NCBI GenBank assembly: GCA_002327925.1
Contig: DCVA01000018.1
Coordinates: 1-27,828 of the forward strand
Source: Anaerolineales bacterium UBA2200
GTDB lineage: Bacteria > Chloroflexota > Anaerolineae > UBA2200
DNA length: 27,828 nt
Direction of reading: 5' to 3'
Part shown: one piece after another, positions 57 to 23,308 of the stretch
How the letters are laid out: every line of letters begins with the position of its first letter
How positions within the stretch are numbered: position 1 is the first letter of the stretch
Translations under genes and position numbers: made by a program
The notes under the pieces: generated by a model
Database searches by the model: none
What the model saw: the letters and a program-made list of their open reading frames with translations, nothing else
Told to the model about the DNA's origin: nothing

Positions 57-243
57 GGAACCAGGTGGCGGGCCGAGTGATGCAGAAGCACAGATGGTTC
101 CCGCCCGGGTCTTGCCACAGACTGCGGTCCCTATCGGTGTGGTCAGGGTGACCGTCGTTTGTGGTTGTTGTGTTCGCGTCTGCGTGCCCTGTTTAGGGCT
201 GTCGCGCGCTGGAAAGCAGGCCAACACTGTTCTGGGAGAGCGA

Positions 244-3200: not shown

Positions 3201-3578
3201 ACCTGGGTATCCCCCGAGCTGGGGAGCCTGTGGACCCTGCCCGGGGCCAACGACGTGGTGCTCGACCGGCGTGCCGTGCCCGAGTCCACCGTCACCACCA
3301 CCGGACCGTTGCTATGGTACCGGTTCGACCTGAGCAATCTGGTGCGGGAGTGGCTGGACGGCGGCACGGCCAACAACGGCGTGTTGCTGCGCTGCGAGTC
3401 ATGTACGGGCAAATTCCTGGCCGGGTCCCCCGACTTGGCCCCTCCGGCAGACGAGTTGAGGCCACAGCCATATCTGGGCCCGCTGCCGGGTAACCTGTGC
3501 CCGTACACCTACTTCTTTGCTTCCAGCGAGTACAGCAATCCGGCCGTCTGGCCGCGGCTGGTGGTGAGGTACCAGTAG
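244..3578 (+). CDS. large secreted right-handed beta-helix protein with Pmp-type (GGA[ILV]/GGGxxN) repeats, DUF11-like repeat domain, Pro-Thr linker and C-terminal beta-sandwich-like domain; adhesin/surface protein-like
   Basis: ORF 159..3578. ATG-ATG at 244/247 is preceded by GGGAGAG. The N-terminus MMRRNTLLFISVFISVLLFVFTANTVARA is a typical signal peptide. Motifs FGGGLAN, GGGIANG, GGGLLNG, FCGGAILN and GGGVCNG recur at ~25-30 aa spacing, as in polymorphic outer membrane protein/pectin-lyase-fold repeats. TDTLPAGIALYSV...VVWVIPTLGSGESVQLEI resembles a DUF11 domain. TPTPTPTPTPIP is a linker. Confidence 0.8.
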
Positions 3579-3687: not shown

Positions 3688-3920
3688 GACCTCGTGAGAC
3701 AGCTCGGCGCTTCGCCGGGCTCGGTTGTCGCGGTCACGATGAAGTGGGCGTCGCAGGATTTGGCTTGATGAGTCACCCGTCCACTGCTTGGGATGGACGG
3801 GTTGTGGATTCTCGCGCCAATGACGCGCCTCGGCCAAGCAAGGCGCATTCCCCCTTGGGGGTGTCAACGCAATTCCTTTCGGTACGGATTGCCCAGGTTG
3901 CCGAGAGAAAGGGGACCCTC

Positions 3921-6026
3921 ATGCCACGACTGACCGAGCAAGAGCAACAAGACATCCTCCGCTACATCGAAGCCGACAAGCCCCTGCCCGACAAGTACCG
4001 CTTCTTGCTCTTTGCCGACAAGCGCGAAGTCGAACTGGTCTGGAACGGCAAGACGAATGAAGTCTGCAACATCGTCCTACCCTTCCAGGTCATCGAGCAG
4101 GTCGACGAGCCGCGCGCCGAAAAGCCCGCAGATGCAGCCCTGCAACTGGGGCTGTTCGACGATCGAGGCCGCCAGCTCAAGGGCTGGACCAACAAGCTCA
4201 TCTGGGGCGAGAACAAGCTCATCCTCTCTTCGCTGAAGAACGGCCCCCTGCGGGAAGAGATCGAAAAGCAGGGCGGCCTCCAGCTGATCTACATTGACCC
4301 GCCCTTTGACGTGGGCGCGGACTTTTCCATGGACCTCGAGATCGGCGACGATACCTTCACCAAGAAACCGAACATCCTCGAGGAGATAGCCTACCGTGAC
4401 ACCTGGGGCAAAGGCGCGGATTCCTTCATTGCGATGATCTACGAGCGCCTGGCGCTGATGCGCGACTTGCTCACCGAGGATGGCAGCATCTACGTTCACT
4501 GCGATTGGAGGGTCAACAGCTTCATCCGACTCGCGCTAGATGAGGTCTTCGGTGCCTCGAACCTTATCAACGAGATCACATGGCACTTCCCAAGCATGTC
4601 TGCTGCGAGGAACAAGTTTCCTGTCAAGAGCAACACAATATACCGCTATGGCAGAGGCGCAGACTCGATCTTCAATGCGGACGCAGTGCGAGTGCCATAT
4701 GAGGAATCCTCTCTTGCGGTGATGAGCGCAGGCTATGGCGGCGGCCTGGCAACAGGCGGCACATCCGTTCGGCAGGCCTACGGCAATGAGGGAGGAAAGG
4801 TCCCTGATACCGTTTGGCGCATTCGTCATGTTAGTAGTGGGGCGGAAAATGTCGGGTACCCCACGCAGAAGCCCGAACCTCTCCTCGAACGCATAATCAT
4901 GTCTTCGTCAAGCGAAGGCGACCTGGTCGCCGATTTCTTCTGCGGTTCAGGAACCACCGCCGTCGTTGCAGAAAGGCTAGCCCGCAAATGGATCGCCTGC
5001 GACTTGGGCAAGTTCGCGATTCATACCACGCGCAAGCGCATGATTGGCGTGCAACGCCAGCTCAAAGCCGAGGGCAAGGACTATCGAGCCTTTGAGATCC
5101 TCAACTTGGGCAAGTACGAGCGCCAGCACTATGTCGGCGTCAACACCAACCTTCGCCAAGCCGAACAGGAACAGCAACTCCAAGAGAAAGAAACGGCCTT
5201 TGTCGACCTGATCCTCCGTGCCTACCGCGCCGAAAGAACGCAGGGCTTTGCCACCTTTCACGGCAAGAAGGGTGGGCGGTTGGTGGCCGTGGGGCCGGTG
5301 AACCTGCCAGTCACACGCCTGTTCGTGGAGGAGGTCATCCTGGAGTGTCGCCAGAAACACATCACCCGTGTCGACATCCTCGGGTTCGAGTTCGAGATGG
5401 GCCTCTTCCCCAACGTTCTCGATGAAGCCCGCTCCAAAGGCATCGACATCGCTCCCAAGTACATTCCGGCCGAGGTCTTTGACAAACGGGCCGTAGAAAG
5501 GAATCAGGTCGTCTTTCACGACGTCGCCGCCATCGAAGTCAAGCCCCACATCAAGAAGAACACCGTGGCGGTGCAACTGACCGACTTTTCGGTCTACTAT
5601 TCGCAGGATTCCATTTCCTCTGCCGAGGCTACGCTCAAAGACAAGACCAGCAAAGTCGTGGTGGAGAGGGGCCAGATCGTCAAGGTCAGCAAGGACGCCC
5701 ATGGTTTTGTGAACCGTGAAGTCCTGACCAAGAAGTGGACAGACTGGATCGACTACTGGGCGGTGGACTTTAACTTTGAGAGCAAGCGCGAAATCGTCCG
5801 GGTCAAGGACGAACAGAGCGGCGCGTGGGAAGAACGATGGACTGGCGACTATATCTTTGAGAACGAGTGGCAATCCTTCCGCACCAAGAAGGACCGCTCC
5901 CTCGAGCTCACCAGTCCCTTTCACGAGTGCACCCCAGGGCGCCGCAAACTCGCAGTGAAGGTGGTCGACATCTTTGGCAACGACACCATGACCATCGTCG
6001 ACGTTGCCGTGGGAGGGACAAAGTAA
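3921..6026 (+). CDS. mod: Type III restriction-modification system methyltransferase (Mod), beta-class N6-adenine/N4-cytosine MTase
   Basis: ORF 3744..6026. The internal ATG at 3921 is preceded by GAGAGAAAGGGG. Motif IV LIYIDPPFDVGADF precedes motif I FFCGSGTTAVVA (beta-class order typical of Type III Mod). GC is lower than the flanking DNA. Confidence 0.85.
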   Translation: MPRLTEQEQQDILRYIEADKPLPDKYRFLLFADKREVELVWNGKTNEVCNIVLPFQVIEQVDEPRAEKPADAALQLGLFDDRGRQLKGWTNKLIWGENKLILSSLKNGPLREEIEKQGGLQLIYIDPPFDVGADFSMDLEIGDDTFTKKPNILEEIAYRDTWGKGADSFIAMIYERLALMRDLLTEDGSIYVHCDWRVNSFIRLALDEVFGASNLINEITWHFPSMSAARNKFPVKSNTIYRYGRGADSIFNADAVRVPYEESSLAVMSAGYGGGLATGGTSVRQAYGNEGGKVPDTVWRIRHVSSGAENVGYPTQKPEPLLERIIMSSSSEGDLVADFFCGSGTTAVVAERLARKWIACDLGKFAIHTTRKRMIGVQRQLKAEGKDYRAFEILNLGKYERQHYVGVNTNLRQAEQEQQLQEKETAFVDLILRAYRAERTQGFATFHGKKGGRLVAVGPVNLPVTRLFVEEVILECRQKHITRVDILGFEFEMGLFPNVLDEARSKGIDIAPKYIPAEVFDKRAVERNQVVFHDVAAIEVKPHIKKNTVAVQLTDFSVYYSQDSISSAEATLKDKTSKVVVERGQIVKVSKDAHGFVNREVLTKKWTDWIDYWAVDFNFESKREIVRVKDEQSGAWEERWTGDYIFENEWQSFRTKKDRSLELTSPFHECTPGRRKLAVKVVDIFGNDTMTIVDVAVGGTK

Positions 6027-8713
6027 TGGCCCTACACAAGGACTTTCCCGAGTCTCCCTATGCCATCCTCGACCCGTCAGTGCGTTGGTTTCCCGCAGAC
6101 GAGTCGCTCCGCGATACCAGCATGGACAAGCTCATGCCCCCGCTGGTGGCAAACCTGCGAAAGAAGGTGAAGGATTGGCGAAACGGTGGTTACGGCGGTG
6201 CCACAAAGACCAGCAGGAGCTTGCTGACATGGTGGTTCAAGACTCCGCACCTCCTGCCCAAGCCCGATGGTACGACTGCCGAGTTTCATTACTACTTTGC
6301 TCAGCGCGAGGCACTCGAGACCATCGTCTATCTATACGACGTGGCCGCCGTGCGCGACAAGTTCGACCTGATGCGCTATGACAGTTCGGGCGCTGTTTCT
6401 GCAGGGATGTTTGACGAGACGTGGCGACGCTTTGTGGTGAAGATGGCGACTGGTACAGGCAAGACCAAGGTCCTAGGGCTAGTCCTCGCCTGGAGTTTCT
6501 ATCACAAGCTCTATGAGCCGGCATCCGAGCTGGCACGCAACTTTTTGGTGATCGCCCCCAACATCATCGTCCTCGACCGGATCTACAGGGATTTCCAGGG
6601 CCTACGCATGTTCTTTGAGGACCCGGTCATCCCTGACAATGGCGTCGATGGGCACAACTGGCGCGACGATTTTCAACTCACCCTGCACGTGCAAGACCAG
6701 GTGCACATCACCCGACCAACGGGCAACATCTTTCTGACCAACATCCACCGCGTCTATGCCAGCAATGACACCACCCCCTCGGCTGACGACGACGACGTAC
6801 GAGACTATTTTCTGGGCACGCGTCCCACAGGCGCCACAACCGACTCCAAGGTGGACCTGGGCATCATCGTCCGCGACATTGATGAGCTGGTCGTGCTCAA
6901 TGACGAGGCGCACCACATCCACGACCCGCGTATGGCCTGGTTCAAATCCATCGAAGACATCCACAACAGGCTCAAGCAAAAGGGCGCAGCGCTTTCCCTC
7001 CAAGTAGACACTACCGCCACGCCCAAACACAACAATGGGGCCATCTTCGTCCAGACGGTGGCCGATTACCCGCTGGTGGAGGCGATCTCCCAAAACGTGG
7101 TCAAGCACCCCGTGCTGCCCGATCCACCGAGCCGTGCCAAACTGGCGGAGCGGCAAAGCGCCAGGTTCACCGAAAGATATGCCGACTATATTCACCTCGG
7201 CGTGATCGAATGGCGCAAGGCCTTCGCTGAGCACGAAAAACTGAACAAGAAAGCCGTCCTCTTCGTGATGACCGACGATACCCGCAACTGCGACGAAGTG
7301 GCCGAGTACCTCGAAGCCCACTACCCTGACCTCAAGGATGCGGTCCTCGTCATCCACACCAAAGACAATGGTGAAATCTCGGAGGCGACCTCGGGCAAGA
7401 GCAAAGACGAACTCGACGAGCTTCGCCAGCAGGCGAACGAGATCGATGGCCTGGACAGCCCCTACAAAGCGATCATCTCCGTGATGGTGCTGAAAGAGGG
7501 TTGGGACGTGCGCAACGTCACCACCATAGTAGGCCTCCGCGCCTATTCCGCCCAGAGCAACATCCTCCCCGAACAGACTCTAGGTCGCGGTCTGCGCAAG
7601 ATGTACACCAGCACCGTCGAAGAATACGTCAGCGTGGTGGGCACAAACGCCTTTATGGACTTTGTCGAGTCGATTCAAGCCGAGGGCGTGGTGCTGGAAC
7701 GCAAGCCGATGGGCGAGGGCACCGGCCCCAAGACGCCCCTCTTCATAGAGGTCGACAACGAGAACGTGAAGAAAGACATCGGCGCACTGGACATTGAGAT
7801 CCCGGTGTTAACGCCCCGCATCTACCGCGAATACAAAAACCTCGCCGCCCTCGACCCAGCCACACTCGAGCACCAACGCGTGGCCTACCTGCAATTCAGT
7901 CCTGAGGAGCAGCGAGAGATCGTCTTCAAGGACATCACCACTGGCGAAGTGGACCACACGACAATACTGGACTCGGCGGGAGTCCCGGACTATCAAAGCG
8001 TCATTGGCTATTTCGCTCAGACAATCATGAGGGACCTCCGGCTGGTGAGCGGCTACGATGTGCTCTACCCCAAGGTCAAGGCATTTGTCCAACACCACCT
8101 CTTTGACCAGAGCGTGGACCTCGAGAACCCCAACACTCTGCGCAACCTGTCCGAGCTGGCCGCCACAAAGACAATTCTGGAGACGTTCAAGGGAGCCATC
8201 AATGCCCTTACGGTGCAGGACAAAGGTGACGCCGAGATTCGGGACAGTATCAAACTGCGGGAGACGCGTCCATTCGTAGTAAAGGAGCAGGGGTACCTAG
8301 TCCCGAAGAAGAGCGTCTTTAACCGCATAGTCGGCGACAGCCACTTCGAACTTCTTTTCGCTCGGTTCCTCGACGACTGCGAAGACGTCGTTGCCTACGC
8401 CAAGAACTACTTCGCGGTGCACTTTAGGCTGGACTATGTCAATGCTGACGGCGGAATCTCGGACTACTACCCTGACTTCTTGGTCAAGACATCTAACAAG
8501 CGCATCGTGGTCGTCGAGACCAAGGGACCAGAAGACTTGGACGTGCCACCGAAGATGGCCCGACTGCGGCAATGGTGCGAAGACATCAACCGTGTTCAGT
8601 CGCGCACAAAGTACGACTTTGTATACGTGGACCAGGAAAGCTTTGATCGGTTCAGGCCTGCGTCGTTCGCGCAGTTGGTCGATGGCTTTCGCGAATACAA
8701 AGAGCACAAATGA
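6026..8713 (+). CDS. res: Type III restriction enzyme Res subunit (SF2 helicase/ATPase plus C-terminal PD-(D/E)xK endonuclease)
   Basis: The start ATG overlaps the mod stop as TAATG. Motifs are Walker A MATGTGKT, DEAH box LNDEAHH, helicase motif VI QTLGRGLR, and a C-terminal YYPDFLV...VVVETKG nuclease motif. Confidence 0.85.
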   Translation: MALHKDFPESPYAILDPSVRWFPADESLRDTSMDKLMPPLVANLRKKVKDWRNGGYGGATKTSRSLLTWWFKTPHLLPKPDGTTAEFHYYFAQREALETIVYLYDVAAVRDKFDLMRYDSSGAVSAGMFDETWRRFVVKMATGTGKTKVLGLVLAWSFYHKLYEPASELARNFLVIAPNIIVLDRIYRDFQGLRMFFEDPVIPDNGVDGHNWRDDFQLTLHVQDQVHITRPTGNIFLTNIHRVYASNDTTPSADDDDVRDYFLGTRPTGATTDSKVDLGIIVRDIDELVVLNDEAHHIHDPRMAWFKSIEDIHNRLKQKGAALSLQVDTTATPKHNNGAIFVQTVADYPLVEAISQNVVKHPVLPDPPSRAKLAERQSARFTERYADYIHLGVIEWRKAFAEHEKLNKKAVLFVMTDDTRNCDEVAEYLEAHYPDLKDAVLVIHTKDNGEISEATSGKSKDELDELRQQANEIDGLDSPYKAIISVMVLKEGWDVRNVTTIVGLRAYSAQSNILPEQTLGRGLRKMYTSTVEEYVSVVGTNAFMDFVESIQAEGVVLERKPMGEGTGPKTPLFIEVDNENVKKDIGALDIEIPVLTPRIYREYKNLAALDPATLEHQRVAYLQFSPEEQREIVFKDITTGEVDHTTILDSAGVPDYQSVIGYFAQTIMRDLRLVSGYDVLYPKVKAFVQHHLFDQSVDLENPNTLRNLSELAATKTILETFKGAINALTVQDKGDAEIRDSIKLRETRPFVVKEQGYLVPKKSVFNRIVGDSHFELLFARFLDDCEDVVAYAKNYFAVHFRLDYVNADGGISDYYPDFLVKTSNKRIVVVETKGPEDLDVPPKMARLRQWCEDINRVQSRTKYDFVYVDQESFDRFRPASFAQLVDGFREYKEHK

Positions 8714-14154: not shown

Positions 14155-14167
14155 GTGAAGGGGGTTC

Positions 14168-14584
14168 CTTGACACCTGCCCTCCGACGGGCCACAATGGC
14201 GGCACTATGGACGAAACCGCACTCACTTCCACTCTGGACCGCACCATCACCCTCAGCGCCCTCTCGATGGACGAGGCGCGGGAGCAGGCCAGGGCCATGC
14301 TCGCCCCAATGGTGGAGGTGCAGTACCTGGCGCCTTCGCTCTACTCCTTCACGCTGGGCCCGAAGCGGGTCTACAACCTGGTGCGCACCTGGGGCGGCCA
14401 CGGGCAGAGGGTGGAAGAGTTCTATGCACCTGCCGGCATTGCTCTGGATCAGGCCGGAAGGGTCTATGTGACGGACAACGGGCTGTACATGAGCAAGAGC
14501 GGCACGCTCAAGCAGCCCTACTCGCGCGTGGTCAAGTTCGACGCCAACGGGCGCTGGCTGGCCATGTGGGGCGAGCGCGGCGAG
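14168..14584 (+). repeat. copy 1 of duplicated promoter plus 5' coding blocks of the NHL paralogs (144 bp + 273 bp at ~99% identity to 21893-22036 and 22370-22642)
   Basis: Direct visual alignment gives 2 mismatches in 144 bp and 3 in 273 bp. Downstream of 14584 the identity falls to roughly 60-70%. Confidence 0.85.
14169..14197 (+). promoter_or_regulatory. promoter of NHL paralog copy 1 (TTGACA-17-CACAAT), essentially leaderless
   Basis: TTGACA at 14169-14174, a 17-nt spacer, CACAAT at 14192-14197 and the ATG at 14207. There is no SD. The element is duplicated at 21894-21922. Confidence 0.4.
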
Positions 14585-15288
14585 CGAGAGGAGCAACTGC
14601 TCGAAGCGCAGGGCCTGGCCATCGACGCAGCGGGCAACGTATGGGTCGCCGATGGCGGCTCGGGCAAGATCGTCGTGTACGAGGCCCGGATGAGGTGAGT
14701 GCGCTCCTTTGGCAGCAAGGGCAGCGGTGAGGGGCAGTTCTCCGGCGGCACGCTGCACGTGGCCCTGGCGCCGGGCGCGAACGTGTATGTGTCGGACCGC
14801 ATGGCCCACCGCGTGCTGCGCTTTACCCGTGAGGGCGAGTACGTGGGCTGCTGGGGCGAGCGGGGCAAGGGCGAAGCGCAACTCGAGCGCCCCGAGGCCA
14901 TTGCCGTCGACTCGCAGGGTACGGTCTATGTGGCCGATGGCGGCAACGACCGCATCTGCAAATTCACCGCCGACGGCACCTATCTCGGCCAGTGGGGCGG
15001 TCGCGGACCTGCGGGGGCGTCGGCCAAGGATATGCCGGACGGCAGTCTGGCCGTGCCCAAGGGCATCCGCTTTGACCGGGCCGACTTCCTGTATGTGGTC
15101 TCGGCGGGCATCCCGGTCAAGTCCCCAGCGGGGGGCGGTTCCTGGCGCGCTGGTACACGTTCAAGCCCACGACGCGGTCGAGCACCAATCCGCTGGATGT
15201 GGCGGTGGATGGGGCGGGGCGGGTGTACGTGCCAGAGGGGAGCCGCAAGCTGGTGGAGAAGTACGAGCAGGGGGCGCTTGACAGATAG
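14207..15288 (+). pseudogene. NHL-repeat (six-bladed beta-propeller) protein paralog, disrupted by an in-frame TGA at 14696-14698 and a frameshift near the G6 run at ~15125
   Basis: ORFs 14207..14698 and 14699..15343 are in the same frame, separated only by TGA. The C-terminal homology to copy 2 (ARWYTFKPTTRSSTNPLDVAVDGAGRVYVPEGSRKLVEKYE versus ARWATYQPKNQPLSNPVDVAVGGAGRVYLLEASRKLVEVYE) continues in a different frame, ending at TAG 15286-15288. Confidence 0.5.
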
Positions 15289-15306
15289 GCTAGAGTCTAC
15301 TAGAAT
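15278..15306 (+). promoter_or_regulatory. promoter of the toxin-antitoxin operon (TTGACA-17-TAGAAT), followed by TACTAG/CTAGTA inverted repeat (15310-15326), a likely autoregulatory operator
   Basis: TTGACA at 15278-15283, a 17-nt spacer and TAGAAT at 15301-15306. The imperfect direct repeats AGAGTCTACTAG / GGAGACTGCTAG and the inverted repeat lie between the -10 and the RBS AAAGGAG. Confidence 0.4.
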
Positions 15307-15342
15307 CGTCTGGAGACTGCTAGTATCAAAAGGAGTCGACTG

Positions 15343-15657
15343 ATGACCGATGCCAAACCGATCCTCACGCCGGATGAAGTGGCGGAATATCTGCGCCTGG
15401 CGCCGGACACGGTGTACCGGTATATCCGCCAGGGCAAGCTCGTTGCCTCGCGTTTGGGGCGGCAGTACCGGGTGACCCGTGAGAGCGTCGAGCTGTTCCT
15501 TGTGAACTCTGAGACGGCAAGGCGCGTCGAACCGGTGCGAGTGGTGGCTGAGGAGATACCCGTGTACTCCCTTTCCGAGCTGTTGGAGGGCCTGACCGAA
15601 GACAATCGTCACGAGGAGACGCAGATGGGTCCCGCTGTGGGGGCCGAGGTATGGTGA
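15343..15657 (+). CDS. antitoxin: N-terminal excisionase-type HTH (HTH_17-like) fused to a MazE/PemI-like C-terminal toxin-binding tail
   Basis: RBS AAAGGAG lies 7 nt upstream. LTPDEVAEYLRLAPDTVYRYIRQGKLVASRLGRQYRV is an excisionase-family HTH. The C-terminal SELLEGLTEDNRHEETQMGPAVGAEVW resembles the acidic MazE/PemI tail. The gene overlaps the toxin gene by 7 nt. Confidence 0.75.
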   Translation: MTDAKPILTPDEVAEYLRLAPDTVYRYIRQGKLVASRLGRQYRVTRESVELFLVNSETARRVEPVRVVAEEIPVYSLSELLEGLTEDNRHEETQMGPAVGAEVW

Positions 15658-15995
15658 TTGGCAAATCTTCTGTCCCCGAGCGCGGCGACATCGTCTGGTT
15701 GGATTTCGATCCCCAGGCGGGGCACGAGCAGGCCGGGCGCCGACCCGCGCTGGTACTTTCTCCTGCCGAGTACAACGGCAAGGCCAGCCTAGCCATCGTG
15801 TGCCCGATTACGAGTCAGGTTAAGGGTTATAACCTGGAGGTGAGCCTGCCGCACGGTTTGCCAGTGCAGGGAGTGGTGCTCTCCGACCACATCAGGAGTG
15901 CGGATTGGCGGATCAGAAGGGCAGAACTGATCTGCCGCGCGCCGCGGACCGTCCTGCTCGCGGTACTTGGTCGGGTGCGCACGCTGCTATTCTAG
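15651..15995 (+). CDS. MazF/PemK-family endoribonuclease toxin
   Basis: RGDIVWLDFDPQAGHEQAGRRPALVLSPAEYN is the hallmark PemK/MazF N-terminal motif. The product is 114 aa and the gene overlaps the antitoxin by 7 nt. Confidence 0.8.
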   Translation: MVIGKSSVPERGDIVWLDFDPQAGHEQAGRRPALVLSPAEYNGKASLAIVCPITSQVKGYNLEVSLPHGLPVQGVVLSDHIRSADWRIRRAELICRAPRTVLLAVLGRVRTLLF

Positions 15996-16108
15996 ACCGG
16001 AGAATTCGGCGCGCAGTGGCGGAGGACACGCACAAGGCTGACCTGGCGCTGAACCTCGCGACGGCCGCGGTGGTATGGATGGGTGACGCGCAGGATCAAG
16101 GAGGCAAC

Positions 16109-16717
16109 GTGGCACCTGTCACCCGCCGGAGACGTGTCGGCGTTCTCACCGTTCTGATGTGCTTTCTACTGCTGGCCGCGTGCGGCCAGACCGTGGCCGA
16201 TTCCCCTACCCCACCCCCGCCCACGCCGACCCCTACGGTCGTCCCGTGGTCGCCACTGCCGAGCACCCCGGTCCCATCGAGATCTCGTACATCGACAACT
16301 CTGGCTTTTTGATCGTGGGCGGCGGCAAAAAGGTGCTGATCGATGCGCACCACCTCGCCGTGCCGGAGGACATCCGCAAGGCCATAGAGACCGCAAGGCC
16401 GCCGTTCGACGACGTGGACCTGATCGTGATCACTCACAACCACGCCAACCGCACAGAACGTGGGCTTTGTCCTGCATCTGGCGGGGAAGAAGCTGCTGCA
16501 CACGGGGGACATCCTCAATACCGCCCAGTTGGCCCCGTACGACCTGCAGGATGACCACCTCGACGTGGCCTTTTTCGAGGTAGTGTGGCTGATGGAGAAG
16601 GCGTATCCCAGGAACGGGATCGCCGCGATTGTCAACATCCTCGGAGCGGAGTGGATCGTGCCCATGCACCCGTCGCCGTACCGGTTCGGGTCGGAGGAAC
16701 TGATGGCCACGCTGTAG
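16109..16717 (+). pseudogene. decayed lipoprotein MBL-fold (Lactamase_B_3-like) metallo-hydrolase: two frame changes and an internal ~80-aa deletion
   Basis: AAGGAGG-N4-GTG at 16109 opens a lipoprotein signal (RRRRVGVLTVLMCFLLLAACG), followed by a PT linker. The MBL core (EISYIDNSGFLIVGGGKKVLIDAH...DLIVITHNHAN) continues in a second frame. The GFVLHLAGKKLLHTGD...PMHP segment is in a third frame, only ~5 codons after the HxH motif. ORFs 15905..16312, 16159..16554 and 16460..16717 cover it. Confidence 0.5.
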
Positions 16718-16854
16718 CAGCAATACCCGAAGAGTCTGCTCTTTCGCGCCCCGCTGGAGCCGCTGGTCGTGCCCCAGGAGGGAAGGGAGGGGGGGTCCGC
16801 CAGGCTGTCGGCGCCCCACACGGGTGCATTGGCCTCCACGAGGAGGTCTGTAGC

Positions 16855-16883
16855 TTGCCTACCCTCGGGAGGCGGTGTAGAAT
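16855..16883 (+). promoter_or_regulatory. promoter of the ATPase-TOPRIM operon (TTGCCT-17-TAGAAT)
   Basis: TTGCCT at 16855-16860, a 17-nt spacer and TAGAAT at 16878-16883. A ~65-nt leader follows, then AAGGGAGG and the ATG at 16956. Confidence 0.35.
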
Positions 16884-16955
16884 AGCCTCGGCGAAGCTGA
16901 ACCTGCGCCCTCGCGGTCCGATGTGGGCGCAACTGCCCGGAGCAAGGGAGGCAAG

Positions 16956-18035
16956 ATGTACACGTCGTTTACCGTCCGCAACTACCGGTGCTTTGAGGAG
17001 CTGGAGCTAACCGGCCTCAAGCGCATCAATCTGGTAGCGGGCCGCAACAACGTGGGCAAGACCGCGTTGTTGGAAGCGTTGTTTCTACATATTGGGGCCT
17101 ACAACCCCACCCTGGCGCTGAAGGTTGAAGCGTTTCGCGGTCTCGAGTTCATCAAGGTAGAACTGACTAGCTGGGCTGAGGCACCCTGGAGCTCGTTGTT
17201 TCCCGATTTTGATTCGGCCAAGACGATCGAGCTCGTTGGCCGTGACACCTCACGCGGCAGAAGCTCGGTTCGAATCAGCGTGCCGGACCAGGAGCCGCAG
17301 GTGGCGCCCGTGCCAGACGCCGGGCCGAGCGCCTACGCATTCGTTCGAGACGAACCTGCTGGCTATGAACGGTTCCCGGCTCTGCTGCTGGAGCACAAGG
17401 GACCCAGGGATAGCCAGACCTATCAGCTGAGATTAGGGCCTGACCTTCAGGTTCGACCGACCCCGCCACCTCCCCCCTTCCCCGGAGTCTTTCTCGGGGC
17501 CAGGAATCGCGTGCCTCCGTCTGAAGATGCGCGGCGATTCAACGACTTGCAGATGGCTGGTCGCGAGCACGTGGTTCTGCCGGCCCTTCGGCTGCTAGAA
17601 CCTCGCCTGAAGCGCCTGACTCTGGGGATCACCCGAGGCGTGACCACCCTGCACGGCGATATTGGCCTCAGCCGGCTGCTCCCCTTGCCAGATATGGGCG
17701 AGGGCATGGTGCGCGCCGCAAGTCTCGTGCTGGCCATCGCCAGCTCCCCGGGCGGCGTTGTACTGATTGACGAGATCGAGAACGGCCTTCACCACTCGCT
17801 GCTCGGCCCCATCTGGCATGCGCTTGGTGAGGTGTGTGCGGCCGCGGATGTGCAACTTTTCGCCACCACGCACAGCTGGGAGAACATCGTGGCCGCACAC
17901 GACATCCTGGGCCGTGGGCGCGAGGCAGTACTGGAGCTGATGAGACTGGACCGGGTCGACGGTTCGATCAGAGCTGTCCGGTACTCACCACGCCTGCTCC
18001 AGGCGGCCATCGAGGGTGCCGTGGAGGTAAGATGA
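16956..18035 (+). CDS. ABC-type/AAA_21-like ATPase (OLD/AriA/PtuA-like) of a two-gene candidate defence module
   Basis: ORF 16923..18035. The ATG at 16956 follows AAGGGAGG. Motifs: Walker A GRNNVGKT, Walker B VVLIDEIENGLHH and H-loop ATTHSWE. An insert-rich middle region separates the two ATPase lobes, as in OLD/AriA-type ABC ATPases. There is no TM segment and no nuclease domain. Confidence 0.8.
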   Translation: MYTSFTVRNYRCFEELELTGLKRINLVAGRNNVGKTALLEALFLHIGAYNPTLALKVEAFRGLEFIKVELTSWAEAPWSSLFPDFDSAKTIELVGRDTSRGRSSVRISVPDQEPQVAPVPDAGPSAYAFVRDEPAGYERFPALLLEHKGPRDSQTYQLRLGPDLQVRPTPPPPPFPGVFLGARNRVPPSEDARRFNDLQMAGREHVVLPALRLLEPRLKRLTLGITRGVTTLHGDIGLSRLLPLPDMGEGMVRAASLVLAIASSPGGVVLIDEIENGLHHSLLGPIWHALGEVCAAADVQLFATTHSWENIVAAHDILGRGREAVLELMRLDRVDGSIRAVRYSPRLLQAAIEGAVEVR

Positions 18036-18682
18036 CTGCGGACACGGCCGGCGATCCGAGTACGCCCACGCAACAGCCCGAGTCCATCTCGCACCCGATT
18101 CTCGTGGTCGTCGAGGGCAAGGAGGAAGTCGCGCTCTTCGACGCACTGGCCAAGCACATGGGGCTCTCCGACATCCAGCCAACGGACACCGGGGGCAAAG
18201 TAGGATTGGCTGCGAAGCTAGAGTTGCTGAGACGGGGCTCAGGGTTTGAGCGGGTGAGGGCGATTGGAGTGGTGCAAGATGCCGACAGAGACCACCAGGG
18301 CAGGTTCAAGAGCGTGTGCGGGGCCCTGCGCAGGGCGCGGCTCCCCGTGCCAACTTGCGAACTTGAGCCTGTTGGAGAACACCCGCGAGTGGTTGTGCTA
18401 ATTGTCCCAGGCGAGGGGCGCCCCGGAGCGCTCGAGGACATCTGTCTTGAAGCCGTACAGAACGAGCCGGCGATGGCCTGCGTGGAGAGCTTCTTTCAGT
18501 GTCTGAAGGGTGCCGGCGTCCCCGCGCCGCGCGAATTGTCGAAGGCCAAGACCCGTGTCTTCCTGGCGTCAAGGCCAAAACCAGACCTGGCGCTCGGCGT
18601 GGCGTGTGCAGAAGGCTATTGGCCGCTCAAGGGGAAGGCTTTCGACGACCTGCGCAAGCTTCTGTCCCTGCTGTGCGCCTAG
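18032..18682 (+). CDS. small TOPRIM-like protein (DUF4276/DUF4435-like: conserved Glu in VVVEGKEE and DxD in VVQDADRD), translationally coupled partner of the ATPase
   Basis: Its ATG at 18032 overlaps the ATPase stop (ATGA). The N-terminal beta-strand plus EG(K/x)(E/T)E and a later DxD are the TOPRIM catalytic signature seen in OLD, Gabija GajA and PARIS AriB. The product is 216 aa. Confidence 0.65.
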   Translation: MTADTAGDPSTPTQQPESISHPILVVVEGKEEVALFDALAKHMGLSDIQPTDTGGKVGLAAKLELLRRGSGFERVRAIGVVQDADRDHQGRFKSVCGALRRARLPVPTCELEPVGEHPRVVVLIVPGEGRPGALEDICLEAVQNEPAMACVESFFQCLKGAGVPAPRELSKAKTRVFLASRPKPDLALGVACAEGYWPLKGKAFDDLRKLLSLLCA

Positions 18683-18708
18683 ACTGCCCTGGAGTGGCAC
18701 TCATCGCG

Positions 18709-21700
18709 CTAGCTCTGCCCCTCGACGATTGCGATCTCTTCCTCGGTCAGCCCGTACAGCTCATCGACCAGCGCATCGATCTCCCTGTCCGTGGCGGTGA
18801 TCTGGCGGGTGTACAGCTCGCGGTCGGCTTCGGTGCGGGCGGCGGCCAGGTGCTTGTGCAGCTCGAGCATAAGGTTGACCAGCTCGACCATGCGGGCGTG
18901 GCGGGCGGCGTCGGCCGGGTCGGAGAAGTCGATGGCGCGGATTGGCAATTGCTCAATGTATTGCTTGTTCGCCGCATAGTAGCCGCCGTGAAACCTGCTG
19001 GCAAGGCGCCTGAACTGGAAGTCCAGCAGCGTGGAGTTAAGGAGACCACACAAGTAAATTAACCCCATTGGCGAGTCTGTGACGAGGCCGTACCCGCCGG
19101 TGGTGACGTTGATGAAGTACAGATCCTCGGAGAGATCAAGGTACGCCGAAAGCCGGCTGACCATGTAAGGTACCATCAGCTTGCTGCGCTCCCAGGCGCC
19201 GAGGTTCTGTGTTCTGCCGAATCTGTACCATCGAGCATCCTTGAAACTGCCATGCTCACGATCCTGCAGCAGGCCCTTGTTGGCGCTCAAGTACGCCCAG
19301 GCGAGCGGGTACCGCTCACGCAGCTCGGTGGCTGAGATCAGCTCGGCCGTTCCCTCCGCAATGTGGTATGGAAAGAGCACATAAGCAGATGCGACGGCAT
19401 GGTATCGGCCGATATCTCCGCTGCGAACCACGGGGCGCAAAATGGAGGACTCGAGCTCTACCCAGCGGCCAAGCTCCTTCGACAGTACCTCGGTGACGGC
19501 GGTCCTGGCGCTCGGGCGGCTTTCCTTGAAGAGCATGACTGTGTCAGCGCTCGTTATGGGCCCCTGGTAGATGCGAGCCGCCACGGTTCCCAGCTTGACC
19601 GGCATGGCAGCCAAGCGACCGAACAGGGAGCCTTCCAAGCCCACGGCGAAATTCCAGTCTTCTCCCGTCATGCTCTTTGCGGGAACGTGACCACTTGTCG
19701 CCGCGCCCGACGCCTGCCACTCCGACAAGTCGATGACCTTCCGAACGTCGACCTGCTTTGCCCCTGCCTTGTCCAGAAACATCAGGCAGGTGTAGGTGGT
19801 AGCTCCCGAAAAGACCTGTTGGTCCCCAAAGTGCACCACGTGCGAGAGGTGCTTTCCTTTGGCGATCAGCTCGCGCAGCGGCCTTCCGTACTGGGCGTTG
19901 AAGAACTTGTGCGGCAGGATGAAGCCAAGCCGCCCGTGCGGATTGAGCAGACTCAGTCCCTTCTCGACAAACACGACATAGATGTCATAGTTGCCCTTGC
20001 TGGCCGCGACATAGTGCTGCTTGTACAGCTCGACCTCGAGGGGCGCCCACTCCTTCATCGTCTGGATACGAATGTAGGGCGGGTTGCCGATCACGACGTC
20101 AAACCCGCCCGCCTTCATCACCTCGGCGAACTCCTTTCGCCAGTCAAAGGCATTGACCCTACGCTCCTCCTTGTCATCGTAGAACAAGCTTCGGGGCACC
20201 TGGTCCGGCCCAATGAGCGAGTTGCCACATTTGATGTTCTTGCCCAAATCCGGCAGGGCGCGCTCCTGGAACAGCTTGAGCTGTTGTCCCAGCGTCTGCT
20301 CGTTCTCCCCCTCCAGCACCTTGAGCAGGAGGTTCAGCTTGGTCACCTCCACCGCCTGGCGGTCGATGTCCACGCCGTAGATGTTGTTCAGCAGGATGCG
20401 TTTCTTTTCGGCAGTGGTCAGGCGCCACTCGTCCTTCGACAACCGGCGCACGGGCGGCTTCTTGGCGGCAGCCCACTTTTCCAGATCGTGCCGCGTGTAC
20501 CACTCGAGATGGTAATCCAGCAGGTGCTGGTAGGCGCCGAGCAGGAATGACCCCGAGCCGCAGGCCGGGTCGAGTACGCGCAGTTTGCTGATCTGCTCGG
20601 GGGTCTGGTCCTTGATTTGCCCGCCCACGGTGTGCTCGACGATGTAATCGACGATGTAGGTGGGGGTGTAGTAGACGCCGCCGGCCTTTTTGACCTCGGG
20701 CTTTTCCTCGACCACGGCCCTGTGCGCCGGGGTGAGGCGGATGACCTTGCCCAGGAACTGCTCGTACACCTGGCCGAGGATGTCCACGGGTATTACGTCG
20801 AACATGTACTTGGAGGCGGGGTAGTACAGGGCCGAGATGATCTCCTTCAGCGGCTTGTCGTCGACATTCAGGTCGCGCGAAACAGAGTCCTTGCTCAAGT
20901 CAAACAACCCCGAATTGTACCTGTCATTCGCACGGCCAATCAGGGTCTTGACCTGTTCGTAGATGTCAGGTTGGCCAAGCAACTGCTCGAGTTGGCGCTG
21001 AGGCTCGCAGCGGCGGTCCTCCGCCACTCGCAGGAACAGGATTCGATCGATCGTCGCCTGCACGGCGTGGTTCATTTCGCTGACTGACAGGGTCGGGTTG
21101 CGCAGGGCGAGGCTGCGGGCCAGCATATCGCGCCACTCCTCGATGTCCTTCAGGATTGACTGGTCGACCGTGAAGGTGCCGCGATGCTTTGCCGCTTGTT
21201 GGGCAAAGCGGTCCAGCGAACCATTTTCAACCGACCACTTGGAGAAGGTCTGCCAGAGCAGCGACCAGGGTTCGTCTTCGACGTACTGGTCGAAGGTTAG
21301 CAGGTGCCGCCGTGCGAAATCGGCGCTGTCGGCTAGGCCGGGCGGACGCGTGCAATCATAGACGGCAAACTCTTCGAAATCGGTGAGGATGGAAAGGGGG
21401 AGCCTCAGGTTCCAGGCATAGGCGCGCACCTGGAGAGCCGGACCGGTTCCTGCAGTGATGTGAACGGCTGGCTTTTTCGCCTCGACCAGGAATTTGCGCT
21501 TGCCATCGATGCGAAAGCTATAGTCGGGCGCTCTGACGGTGTCGGAGTCACGCACGGACTCCTCGCGAACCACGTCCTTCAGCAGCTGCGAGGCGCCCGA
21601 CCGATTGTGCACGTCCCAGCCGAGGGCCTCGAAGAAGGGGTCGATGTACTCGACGCGGACCTCGGTCTCATGGTACCCCGAGGAGCGGTAGCTATCGAGG

Positions 21701-21765
21701 TGGCTCCGGAAGCGCTCGACCAGGTTGGCGACGTCGCTCCTGGCCTTGTCCATTGGCTCTGTCAT
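18709..21765 (-). CDS. Type IIG (MmeI-like) single-polypeptide restriction-modification enzyme: N-terminal PD-(D/E)xK nuclease (HsdR_N-like), gamma-class N6-adenine MTase, C-terminal target recognition domain
   Basis: The nuclease motif is APDYSFRIDGKRKFLVEAKKP. MTase motif I is VLDPACGSGSFLLGAY and motif IV is VVIGNPPYIRIQ. The ~300-aa C-terminal TRD contains LNSTLLDFQFRRL. No separate specificity or helicase gene is present. Confidence 0.8.
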   Translation of the reverse strand: MTEPMDKARSDVANLVERFRSHLDSYRSSGYHETEVRVEYIDPFFEALGWDVHNRSGASQLLKDVVREESVRDSDTVRAPDYSFRIDGKRKFLVEAKKPAVHITAGTGPALQVRAYAWNLRLPLSILTDFEEFAVYDCTRPPGLADSADFARRHLLTFDQYVEDEPWSLLWQTFSKWSVENGSLDRFAQQAAKHRGTFTVDQSILKDIEEWRDMLARSLALRNPTLSVSEMNHAVQATIDRILFLRVAEDRRCEPQRQLEQLLGQPDIYEQVKTLIGRANDRYNSGLFDLSKDSVSRDLNVDDKPLKEIISALYYPASKYMFDVIPVDILGQVYEQFLGKVIRLTPAHRAVVEEKPEVKKAGGVYYTPTYIVDYIVEHTVGGQIKDQTPEQISKLRVLDPACGSGSFLLGAYQHLLDYHLEWYTRHDLEKWAAAKKPPVRRLSKDEWRLTTAEKKRILLNNIYGVDIDRQAVEVTKLNLLLKVLEGENEQTLGQQLKLFQERALPDLGKNIKCGNSLIGPDQVPRSLFYDDKEERRVNAFDWRKEFAEVMKAGGFDVVIGNPPYIRIQTMKEWAPLEVELYKQHYVAASKGNYDIYVVFVEKGLSLLNPHGRLGFILPHKFFNAQYGRPLRELIAKGKHLSHVVHFGDQQVFSGATTYTCLMFLDKAGAKQVDVRKVIDLSEWQASGAATSGHVPAKSMTGEDWNFAVGLEGSLFGRLAAMPVKLGTVAARIYQGPITSADTVMLFKESRPSARTAVTEVLSKELGRWVELESSILRPVVRSGDIGRYHAVASAYVLFPYHIAEGTAELISATELRERYPLAWAYLSANKGLLQDREHGSFKDARWYRFGRTQNLGAWERSKLMVPYMVSRLSAYLDLSEDLYFINVTTGGYGLVTDSPMGLIYLCGLLNSTLLDFQFRRLASRFHGGYYAANKQYIEQLPIRAIDFSDPADAARHARMVELVNLMLELHKHLAAARTEADRELYTRQITATDREIDALVDELYGLTEEEIAIVEGQS

Positions 21766-21823: not shown

Positions 21824-21892
21824 ACCGCGCCAGCAGAGCTCGATCAGCCCCCGACCCTCCAGACCCAGCAATTGCGAACGGAATGGAGGCTT

Positions 21893-22642
21893 CTTGACAC
21901 CTGCCCTCCGACGGGCCATAATGGCGGCACTATGGACGAAACCGCACTCACTTCCACTCTGGACCGCACCATCACCCTCACCGCCCTCTCGATGGACGAG
22001 GCGCGGGAGCAGGCCAGGGCCATGCTCGCCCCAATGCAGGTAATCGTCGCTGAGGCGCTGCTGCAGGCGGGGGAGACCGACCTGCTGCAGGGTCAGGGCG
22101 TCACGGCCCGGCTGGCCATCCTCCAGGCGATGCAGCAGGCCCCTGTGGGCAGCCGCGTGGTCAGCGCCCGCGAGCTGGACCCGGCTGTGCCGCGCACCGA
22201 GTTTGTCCTGGCGCATGGCGAGGAGCAGGCGCGGCTGCAGGCAAGGCGTGGGCTCAAGCGCGGGGAGGTTCTCGTTGAGCTGGAGCTGACCGCCGCGGCG
22301 GAAAAGGGCAAGCTGGGGGTGGGGCGCAAGCCAGCTCAGTACCAGGCCTCCATCGTGCGGCAGGCGCGGGTGGAGGTGCAGTACCTGGCGCCTTCGCTCT
22401 ACTCCTTCACGCTGGGCCCGAAGCGGGTCTACAACCTGGTGCGCTTCTGGGGCGGCCACGGGCAGAGGGTGGAAGAGTTCTATGCACCTGCCGGCATTGC
22501 TCTGGATCAGGCCGGAAGGGTCTATGTGACGGACAACGGGCTGTACATGAGCAAGAGCGGCACGCTCAAGCAGCCCTACTCCCGCGTGGTCAAGTTCGAC
22601 GCCAACGGGCGCTGGCTGGCCATGTGGGGCGAGCGCGGCGAG
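21893..22642 (+). repeat. copy 2 of duplicated NHL promoter/5' blocks (21893-22036 and 22370-22642), interrupted by a 333-bp in-frame insertion (22037-22369) absent from copy 1
   Basis: Same alignment as for 14168-14584. The insertion encodes QVIVAEALLQ...IVRQAR (111 aa). Confidence 0.85.
21894..21922 (+). promoter_or_regulatory. promoter of NHL paralog copy 2 (TTGACA-17-CATAAT), leaderless-type
   Basis: The -10 ends 9 nt before the ATG at 21932 and there is no SD. It is a duplicate of 14169-14197. Confidence 0.45.
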
Positions 22643-23308
22643 GGCGAAGGGCAGATGCTCGAGGCGCAGGGCATCCAGGTGGGCCCGGACGGCCATGTGT
22701 GGGTGGCGGACGGCGCAGGGGCGAAGGTGGTCGAGTTCGATCCGCGCATGCGCCCTGTGAGGTGGTGGGGCGGCCGGGGAGAGGGCGAAGGTCTGTTCTC
22801 CGGCGGCGCCCTGCACCTGGCCCTGGCGCCTGACGGCAGCATTTACGTGTCGGACCGGCTGGCGCACAGGGTATCGCGCTTTGACCGCTCGGGGGCTTAC
22901 CTGCTGGGCTGGGGCGGCAACGGCAGCGACCCGGGCCAGTTCGAGCGGCCCGAGGGAGTGGCCGTGGACTCGGCCGGCAACGTCTACGTGGCCGACGGGG
23001 GAAACGACCGCATCGGCAAGTTCACCGCCGAGGGCGCCTTCCTCACGCAGTGGGGCGGACGGGGCGTGGCGGATGGCTCCCTGGCCGTGCCGCGCGGCCT
23101 CGCCATCGACCGGGCCGACTGCCTGTATGTGACCTCGGCGGGCATCGCGGTCCAGAAATTCAGCACAGAGGGCGAGTTCCTGGCCAGATGGGCCACCTAC
23201 CAGCCAAAGAACCAGCCGCTGAGCAATCCCGTGGACGTGGCCGTGGGCGGTGCCGGACGGGTGTACCTGCTCGAGGCCAGCCGCAAGCTTGTCGAGGTGT
23301 ACGAGTAG
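21932..23308 (+). CDS. NHL-repeat beta-propeller protein (intact paralog), no signal peptide, unknown N-terminal domain
   Basis: ORF 21725..23308. The ATG at 21932 follows the leaderless promoter. Repeated blades of the form GxxxxPxGIAxDxxGxVYVxDxxNxRIxKF occur six times. Confidence 0.8.
   Translation: MDETALTSTLDRTITLTALSMDEAREQARAMLAPMQVIVAEALLQAGETDLLQGQGVTARLAILQAMQQAPVGSRVVSARELDPAVPRTEFVLAHGEEQARLQARRGLKRGEVLVELELTAAAEKGKLGVGRKPAQYQASIVRQARVEVQYLAPSLYSFTLGPKRVYNLVRFWGGHGQRVEEFYAPAGIALDQAGRVYVTDNGLYMSKSGTLKQPYSRVVKFDANGRWLAMWGERGEGEGQMLEAQGIQVGPDGHVWVADGAGAKVVEFDPRMRPVRWWGGRGEGEGLFSGGALHLALAPDGSIYVSDRLAHRVSRFDRSGAYLLGWGGNGSDPGQFERPEGVAVDSAGNVYVADGGNDRIGKFTAEGAFLTQWGGRGVADGSLAVPRGLAIDRADCLYVTSAGIAVQKFSTEGEFLARWATYQPKNQPLSNPVDVAVGGAGRVYLLEASRKLVEVYE

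Follow-up and report, generated by a model that had tools for sequence, protein, structure and literature searches.

Bacterial systems of the OLD, Gabija, retron-OLD, PARIS and AbiL types join the same two modules, an ATP-binding cassette (ABC) ATPase plus a nuclease of the TOPRIM type, for anti-phage abortive infection (PMC13064643, PMC11464382). In PARIS, a hexamer of the ATPase AriA holds the TOPRIM nuclease AriB inactive; upon sensing of the Ocr protein, AriB is released in an ATP-dependent manner, dimerises and cuts tRNA-Lys (PMC11464382, PMC10802264). AbiL has been described as joining an ABC ATPase with a TOPRIM/OLD-like partner (PMC13064643, PMC11464382). The Pfam annotation of the ATPase tree of Burman et al. 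2024 includes TOPRIM-Old, DUF4435, RloB and DUF4276, and DUF3226 is not among these. Payne et al. 2024 listed 145 phage defence candidates drawn from genes found inside BREX, DISARM and Type I restriction-modification (RM) loci, and one of them, PDC-M38, was derived from two cassettes of an ATPase plus a partner that were seen 84 and 66 times (bioRxiv 10.1101/2024.01.29.577857). In this study, we analysed a stretch of 27,828 nucleotides from Anaerolineales bacterium UBA2200 (contig DCVA01000018.1, assembly GCA_002327925.1), hereafter called the window, focusing on two overlapping genes, A and B, that encode an ABC ATPase and a small TOPRIM-like protein. A preliminary description, made from the sequence alone, had presented this pair as a candidate split OLD/PARIS-like defence system. 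We conclude with moderate confidence that A-B is a self-contained two-gene conflict module in which an OLD-family nuclease is split into two polypeptides, and an anti-phage or addiction module of an already-catalogued candidate type is the most likely description of it.

The 216-residue protein encoded by gene B was assigned to the Pfam family DUF3226 (PF11536) with an E value of 6.9e-22 and a score of 78.7 bits against a cut-off of 27, the match extending over positions 3-206 of the 208 in the profile. A word-index search returned ten relatives of B, all ten of which carry PF11536, and an exhaustive profile search with the B family collected 5,496 clusters (50% identity) at E<=1e-3 and 1,281 at E<=1e-30, so that DUF3226, with 5,496 clusters at the first of these thresholds, is a large family. 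PDC-M38B was the sole PADLOC family matching B (PDLC04624, 3.9e-6), and nothing was matched in the NCBIfam search. The preliminary description had likened the size of B to that of DUF4276, but B is not DUF4276-like; DUF4276, DUF4435 and RloB were all ruled out, as none of them gave a Pfam or PADLOC match to B at E<=1.

The fold of B was modelled by AlphaFold (AF2) with a predicted local distance difference test score (pLDDT) of 95.1 and a predicted template modelling score (pTM) of 0.89. When this model was searched with Foldseek against the whole PDB, ranks 1-5 were all taken by C-terminal regions of class 2 OLD proteins (probability 0.99-1.0, TM about 0.5). In a separate fold comparison, the match covers 151 residues of the 204-residue C-terminal region of Bp OLD; Thermus OLD and T7 primase both scored 8.5, followed by a small Toprim protein (2i5r, 7.9), GajA (7.8) and DnaG (about 7). 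At the sequence level, profile-sequence alignment by hhalign matched B over the LLVEGK...GGK segment to residues 391-435 of P2 Old (E 5.6e-4, probability 30%), with E28 of B placed on the LLVEGK motif of P2 Old. A single-sequence search of the PDB with B returned nothing meaningful, and the B family profile matched PH0156 (2p62) at 3e-5. The model supports a TOPRIM plus helical-domain fold for B like that of the OLD nuclease C-terminal region.

Two TOPRIM motifs were read in B, namely VVVEGKEEVALF (residues 25-36) and VVQDADRD (residues 80-87), and conservation was determined from alignments of 135-142 family members. Residues D83 (100%), P107, C150 and C157 are invariant, and E28, G29, G55, A84, P126, G132, L134, E135, C138 and K171 are each present in at least 90%; E28, D83, E135 and K171 are each kept in at least 97% of these relatives. 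D85 is kept in 60-80%, and the consensus is DxD. Cleavage by Bp OLD requires the metal A ligands E400, D455 and D457, the metal B ligands E404, T506 and E508 (helical domain, first helix), and the lysine K562 (PMC6755086). The residues of B follow the same order as in OLD: E28, an acidic residue at +3/+4 (E31/E32), D83/D85, E135 and K171. We propose that E28 corresponds to E400 and D83/D85 to D455/D457 of Bp OLD; from residue order and the modelled fold, E135 would likewise correspond to E508 and K171 to K562. Judged by its sequence and model, B therefore appears to retain a two-metal site (E28, D83/D85, E135) together with the lysine K171 and is a predicted nuclease.

Three cysteines of the helical region of B, C138 (18443-18445), C150 (18479-18481) and C157 (18500-18502), are found in 93-100% of 135 close family members and are absent in a Klebsiella homologue; a disulfide or a metal site of structural purpose is a possible role for them. 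In a natural protein of 443 amino acids (P0011), two complete DUF3226 units are fused head to tail, and this tandem arrangement suggests that B may act as a dimer.

The protein of gene A (359 amino acids) matched the Pfam families AAA_21 (9.7e-20) and AAA_15 (3.9e-16). Its best PADLOC match was the AbiLi model PDLC02336 (3e-45), in which residues 1-359 aligned with positions 1-340 of the 340 in the profile, and a second AbiLi model scored just 1.1e-11. The PDC-M38A model PDLC04611 followed closely (7.8e-45), and four more PDC-M38A models matched at 1e-20 to 1e-31. AriA models matched at 3.5e-24, with the best stretch limited to residues 219-307, and thus stood below AbiLi and PDC-M38A, as did models of PtuA, GajA, HEC-01A and HEC-02A. 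Searches of NCBIfam gave sub-threshold matches to the N-terminal P-loop only (MADS3, RecF, Eco8 and PtuA). The ABC ATPase fold was also matched structurally, and the protein contains no effector domain. In the AF2 model of A (mean pLDDT 79) confidence is high for the ABC head and low for residues 56-80 and 115-139; the insert at about residues 56-195, between the Walker A and signature motifs, is variable, beta-rich and of low confidence, and lacks the coiled coil that Rad50, SMC and AriA have in its place. From the PADLOC and NCBIfam matches and the beta-rich segment of the model it follows that A is a generic defence-type ABC ATPase head and is not specifically AriA-like.

Conservation in A was read from two alignments, A4 and A5, which hold 38 locus-derived and 70 database homologues (39-71 sequences). 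Little or no variation is seen in the catalytic motifs, in contrast to a variable middle part of the protein. In the Walker A motif G29, G34 and K35 are invariant in both alignments, N31 is invariant in A4 and T36 in A5, and each of the latter two is nearly invariant in the other alignment. In the H-loop T305 is invariant, and T304, H306 and, in A5, S307 are nearly so; in A4, S307 is invariant. At the C terminus no variation occurs at R359 in either alignment or at E357 in A5, and in A4 E357 is nearly invariant; the homologous ATPase of a Klebsiella plasmid likewise terminates in WEVR. A PxPPPPPFP stretch (residues 168-175) was also found to be nearly invariant among close homologues. The preliminary description had reported an ATPase with Walker A, Walker B and H-loop, an insert-rich middle and no effector domain, coupled through ATGA to a 216-residue TOPRIM-like partner with an EGxEE glutamate and a VVQDADRD motif, and all of these elements were confirmed here, with a conserved Glu and Lys of B (E135, K171) in addition. 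The computational checks that it suggested also came out in favour of its interpretation, apart from the corrections given in this text.

Relatives of the pair were collected by scanning one genome per species with a 10-sequence alignment of B, and a total of 43 loci were obtained from Chloroflexota, Cyanobacteria, Bdellovibrionales, Desulfobacterota, Acidobacteriota, Bipolaricaulota and others, including one archaeon (Methanospirillum); because only ten sequences served for the scan, this sample is biased to close relatives. A homologue of A lies directly upstream of B, on the same strand, in all 40 loci with enough upstream DNA (phmmer 1e-21 to 1e-110), the gap between the two genes being mostly -4, -1 or 0 nucleotides, and the ATPase and TOPRIM parts are split into two open reading frames (ORFs) in every one of these 40. 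Pairwise identities of A and of B are strongly correlated (Mantel r 0.86; 0 of 2000 label permutations as high), to which shared phylogeny contributes. These results show that A and B move as a pair. The 132 ORFs made up by the nearest two genes on either side of the pairs matched 189 Pfam families; since no family recurred in more than four of these ORFs, there is no conserved third component and no fixed neighbourhood. Defence genes neighbour the pair in some relatives, among them Type III methyltransferases, AbiEi, HEC-09, PDC-M37B and mad2, and in one relative genes with TIR, HNH and NOV_C lie nearby. A-B is thus an obligate, co-varying two-gene unit that occurs in variable contexts. In one locus of a gammaproteobacterial metagenome-assembled genome (L036, 6865-12473), two A-B pairs and a further A stand in tandem.

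When plasmids were searched at the protein level, 137 records were identified, of which 132 are from Klebsiella pneumoniae and carry a homologous pair. The K. pneumoniae carriers are small ColRNAI (ColE1-type) plasmids, and among the matches listed most have 4167 bp and are non-mobilizable. In NZ_CP024435.1 (4167 bp, L048) the pair, at 437-2184, consists of an ATP-binding protein of 371 amino acids and a DUF3226 protein of 210 amino acids whose genes overlap by 1 nucleotide, and the only other annotated genes encode Rop and a helix-turn-helix (HTH) protein. The Klebsiella ATPase is 26% identical to A over the full length (E 5e-42), the DUF3226 protein matches B with an hhalign probability of 99.8%, and the pair matches the AbiLi/PDC-M38A and PDC-M38B models of PADLOC. 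In the plasmid pKP13c (L049) the ATPase is annotated as fragments.

In the window, the ORF list gives two frames on the + strand, 16923-18035 and 17834-18682. The start of gene A was set at the ATG at 16956 because the homologue alignments all open with M-Y/L-x-S-F. The ATG of gene B at 18032 and the TGA of gene A at 18033-18035 form the ATGA overlap (18032-18035). The preliminary description gave the pair its own promoter, and a TTGCCT-17-TAGAAT element was indeed the sole sigma-70-like match within 15300-19000, where shuffled sequence averages 0.4; it is a match to the consensus and not functional evidence. Four metagenome assemblies, independent of one another, contain the identical A-B pair, on contigs of up to 104 kb. 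The coordinates of the pair, its motifs and its immediate neighbours are listed in Table 1.

Table 1. Positions of genes A and B, their expression signals and conserved motifs, and flanking genes in the window
Feature	Position	Strand	Remarks
HTH_17 antitoxin-like gene	15343-15657	+	HTH_17 5.9e-16; context only
PemK/MazF toxin gene, overlapping the HTH_17 gene	15651-15995	+	1.1e-26; context only
TTGCCT-17 nt-TAGAAT, a sigma-70-like promoter match lying 73 nt upstream of the gene A start	16855..16883	+	Consensus match only
Shine-Dalgarno GGGAGG, 4 nt 5' of the gene A ATG	16946..16951	+	Read from sequence
Gene A, soluble SMC/Rad50-type ABC ATPase, 359 aa	16956..18035	+	AAA_21/AAA_15; PADLOC AbiLi / PDC-M38A
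Walker A / P-loop of A, G29-R-N-N-V-G-K35-T36	17040..17063	+	
ABC signature-like motif of A, M247-G-E-G-M-V-R253	17694..17714	+	G248, G250 invariant; R253 nearly (A4, A5)
Walker B of A, V268-V-L-I-D272-E273, then D-loop residues IENG	17757..17774	+	D272, E273, G277 invariant
H-loop of A, T304-T-H306-S307	17865..17876	+	
Shine-Dalgarno GGAGG for gene B, within the gene A 3' end, 4 nt 5' of the ATG	18023..18027	+	Read from sequence
C-terminal tail of A, E357-V-R359, last codon running into the gene B ATG	18024..18032	+	A4, A5 alignments
Gene B, DUF3226, 216 aa, stand-alone OLD-type TOPRIM + helical domain, predicted nuclease	18032..18682	+	
E28 codon of B (VVVEG), TOPRIM glutamate	18113..18115	+	99% of 142 sequences
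D83-A-D85 codons of B, TOPRIM DxD	18278..18286	+	D83 invariant, A84 96%
E135 codon of B (G-x-L-E), start of first helix after TOPRIM strand 4	18434..18436	+	99%; candidate metal-B ligand
K171 codon of B (S-K-A-K), helix 169-179 in model	18542..18544	+	98%; candidate catalytic lysine
Type IIG RM enzyme, 1018 aa, convergent with B	18709..21765	-	PADLOC REase_MTase_IIG 8.9e-254

The pair had been placed in a defence island between a toxin-antitoxin (TA) module and a Type IIG RM enzyme; both neighbours were confirmed, and the description is fair for this locus. The HTH_17 protein of the TA module also matches the PADLOC model mad1 of the MADS system (5.9e-11), which probably reflects a shared excisionase-type HTH domain and no more. 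The Type IIG enzyme matches the Pfam families Eco57I (3.3e-51), N6_Mtase, MmeI_Mtase and TaqI_C. A second RM system of the window is of Type III, with Mod at 3744-6026 (N6_N4_Mtase, 2e-43) and Res at 5867-8713 (ResIII, 4e-14), and this stretch (3744-8713) has 57% GC versus 62-67% elsewhere. Copies of an NHL-repeat gene at 14160-14610 and 21885-22668 (also 15033-15121 and 23067-23155), 97% identical over about 450 nucleotides, bracket a segment of about 7.7 kb, within which lie the TA module, the A-B pair and the Type IIG enzyme. The upstream copy is interrupted by an in-frame TGA at 14696-14698 (ORFs 14207-14698 and 14699-15343 in the same frame), and the downstream copy encodes 458 amino acids and has an extra 333 nucleotides; this duplication may mark how the island was acquired or rearranged. 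Between the PemK gene and gene A, 15905-16717 contains overlapping ORF fragments, one with a lipoprotein-like signal (...LLLAACGQ...) and another with a weak match to the metallo-beta-lactamase fold (Lactamase_B_3, 6e-4), and looks like a frameshifted pseudogene. A block of efflux, ABC and MarR genes is also present in the window, and a 1139-residue ORF at 159-3578 with a DUF11 repeat domain (2.4e-13) is likely to encode a large surface protein unrelated to the pair.

Besides the likeness of B to the OLD nuclease region, the split OLD-like conflict module is supported by the presence of the TA module and of the Type IIG and Type III RM systems in the same window, by the defence genes near some relatives, by the obligate pairing and co-variation of A and B, by the autonomy of the homologous pair on tiny Klebsiella plasmids, by the PARIS precedent of an ATPase that sequesters a TOPRIM nuclease and later frees it, and by the independent selection of the PDC-M38 family as a defence candidate on the basis of its embedding in defence loci. 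The following observations weigh against it. In the 43 related loci, most of the neighbouring genes are not defence genes. The Pfam model OLD-like_TOPRIM scored below its cut-off on B (12.5 versus 23.2 bits, E 0.22), the OLD-like TOPRIM models of Pfam giving E values of 0.22-0.36 in all, and the match of B to PDC-M38B is weak (24.7 bits). The pairing of E135 and K171 with OLD residues draws only on residue order and fold. When Payne et al. assayed HEC-01, a related candidate that likewise has an ATPase and a TOPRIM protein, no defence was obtained (bioRxiv 10.1101/2024.01.29.577857), and no mention of DUF3226 or PDC-M38 was found in the literature searched. Finally, close relatives were found in none of the phage records and in one of 2.9 million viral contigs (IMG/VR) when phage collections were searched.

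In the mechanism envisaged for this module, A and B would form a complex in which A keeps the nuclease activity of B in check. A cue from an invading phage or plasmid would be read through the variable insert of A in combination with the binding and hydrolysis of ATP, and would turn B on. Activation could follow the PARIS example, with release of B, or that of OLD and Gabija, with a change of conformation inside the complex. B would then cut nucleic acid and thereby halt the growth of the infected cell. The target could be DNA, which the fold slightly favours, or possibly tRNA; because B resembles the OLD nuclease region more than AriB, a DNA substrate and activation within the complex are both weakly favoured.

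Of the other explanations, a toxin-antitoxin of the PARIS type survives best, though we regard it as unlikely. An oligomer of A would sequester monomers of B, and an Ocr-like protein would bind A and free B, which would then dimerise and cleave specific tRNAs. PARIS is likewise an operon of a split ABC ATPase and TOPRIM nuclease, A does match AriA models, the P0011 fusion suggests a dimer of B, and the position of the pair beside RM systems would fit a back-up role directed at anti-restriction proteins; by analogy, it is plausible that the two systems share the logic of an ATPase sensor and a nuclease effector. However, AriB is a DUF4435 protein of about 35 kDa, whereas B has 216 residues, belongs to DUF3226 and gave no match to AriB or DUF4435 models at E<=1, and in the Foldseek search AriB (8ux9_A) was found at rank 47 (probability 0.41, TM 0.31), far behind the OLD C-terminal regions. 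The insert of AriA is a coiled coil that builds its hexamer and trigger pores, whereas that of the A model is beta-rich, and A scores higher with AbiLi and PDC-M38A than with AriA. A-B is therefore not PARIS and is only distantly related to it, as the preliminary description had anticipated; of its split OLD/PARIS-like label, split OLD fits better and PARIS-like less well.

An addiction module of plasmids or islands without an antiviral role, in which B would be the toxin and A its antidote, so that loss of the element kills or arrests the cell, appears more improbable still. The homologous pair is nearly the sole cargo of the Klebsiella plasmids, which are widespread in that species, the two genes are tightly coupled and co-varying, and in the window the pair adjoins the PemK TA module. 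Nevertheless, a 359-residue ATPase with fully conserved catalytic motifs would be an unusually costly antitoxin, the known relatives of the same layout (OLD, Gabija, PARIS and AbiL) act against phages, and most members of the B family are chromosomal; moreover, addiction and defence are not mutually exclusive. A housekeeping pair for DNA repair or recombination, with a RecF/Rad50-like ATPase and a nuclease analogous to SbcCD or Mre11-Rad50, a kind of outcome that the preliminary description had named among those counting against its reading, is very improbable, because the distribution is patchy over distant phyla including Methanospirillum, the neighbourhood is variable, the pair is carried on small plasmids (and occurs in the tandem array of L036) and the A model lacks a coiled coil, and also the NCBIfam matches cover the generic ABC head only and lie far below their cut-offs (RecF 31.8 versus 172 bits).

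If the split OLD-like module is shown to act in defence, a function would be obtained for DUF3226, a large family of proteins with a domain of unknown function that includes PH0156. A minimal split version would be added to the group formed by OLD, Gabija, PARIS and AbiL, and such minimal versions are useful for studying the means by which an ABC ATPase detects infection and governs a TOPRIM nuclease. The homologue on ColE1-type plasmids of Klebsiella provides a tractable and clinically relevant test system, and the same reading would explain why K. pneumoniae retains these small cryptic plasmids. The current picture of bacterial immunity would be left unchanged, with a known theme extended.

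Among the described systems, PDC-M38 is the one to which the pair probably belongs. Both are two-gene cassettes with an ABC ATPase followed by a small partner; unlike the copies of PDC-M38, which are embedded in BREX, DISARM or Type I RM loci, A-B is free-standing beside a Type IIG enzyme. Since the match of B is weak, the pair is best placed as a divergent sub-branch, and because PDC-M38 is itself a candidate only, membership does not establish function. The pair was already catalogued as PDC-M38 and is therefore less novel than the preliminary description implied. With AbiL the likeness is on the ATPase side only: A matches the AbiLi model over its full length, but neither an AbiLii model nor Pfam RloB matches B at E<=1, and AbiLi has 453 amino acids in the AbiLi/PARIS-i superposition of a review (PMC13064643) compared with 359 in A. 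PH0156 of Pyrococcus horikoshii, the structural-genomics founder of DUF3226, is 16% identical to B, and its crystal structure was deposited in 2007 without an annotated function. The OLD family shares with A the ABC ATPase that carries the Walker A, Walker B, signature and H-loop motifs, and with B the TOPRIM with its conserved Glu and DxD, but in OLD classes 1-3 the two parts are fused, whereas A-B consists of two ORFs. We put forward, as a tentative proposal somewhat short of an even chance, that DUF3226 proteins are stand-alone OLD-type nucleases which, with the compact ABC ATPase lacking a coiled coil that accompanies them in every locus analysed, make up a class of their own among split OLD-like immune systems. 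This class would stand apart from PARIS, AbiL, Gabija and retron OLDs, have its own trigger and target, and be small and self-sufficient enough to serve as nearly the only cargo of 4.2-kb Klebsiella plasmids. As judged by the membership tests, in which the pair proved to be DUF3226, probably PDC-M38, AbiL-like in the ATPase only, not PARIS, and similar to OLD in fold, though split and with a Pfam score under the threshold, A-B is a divergent relative of an already-known kind rather than a new kind, and is well supported as a candidate.

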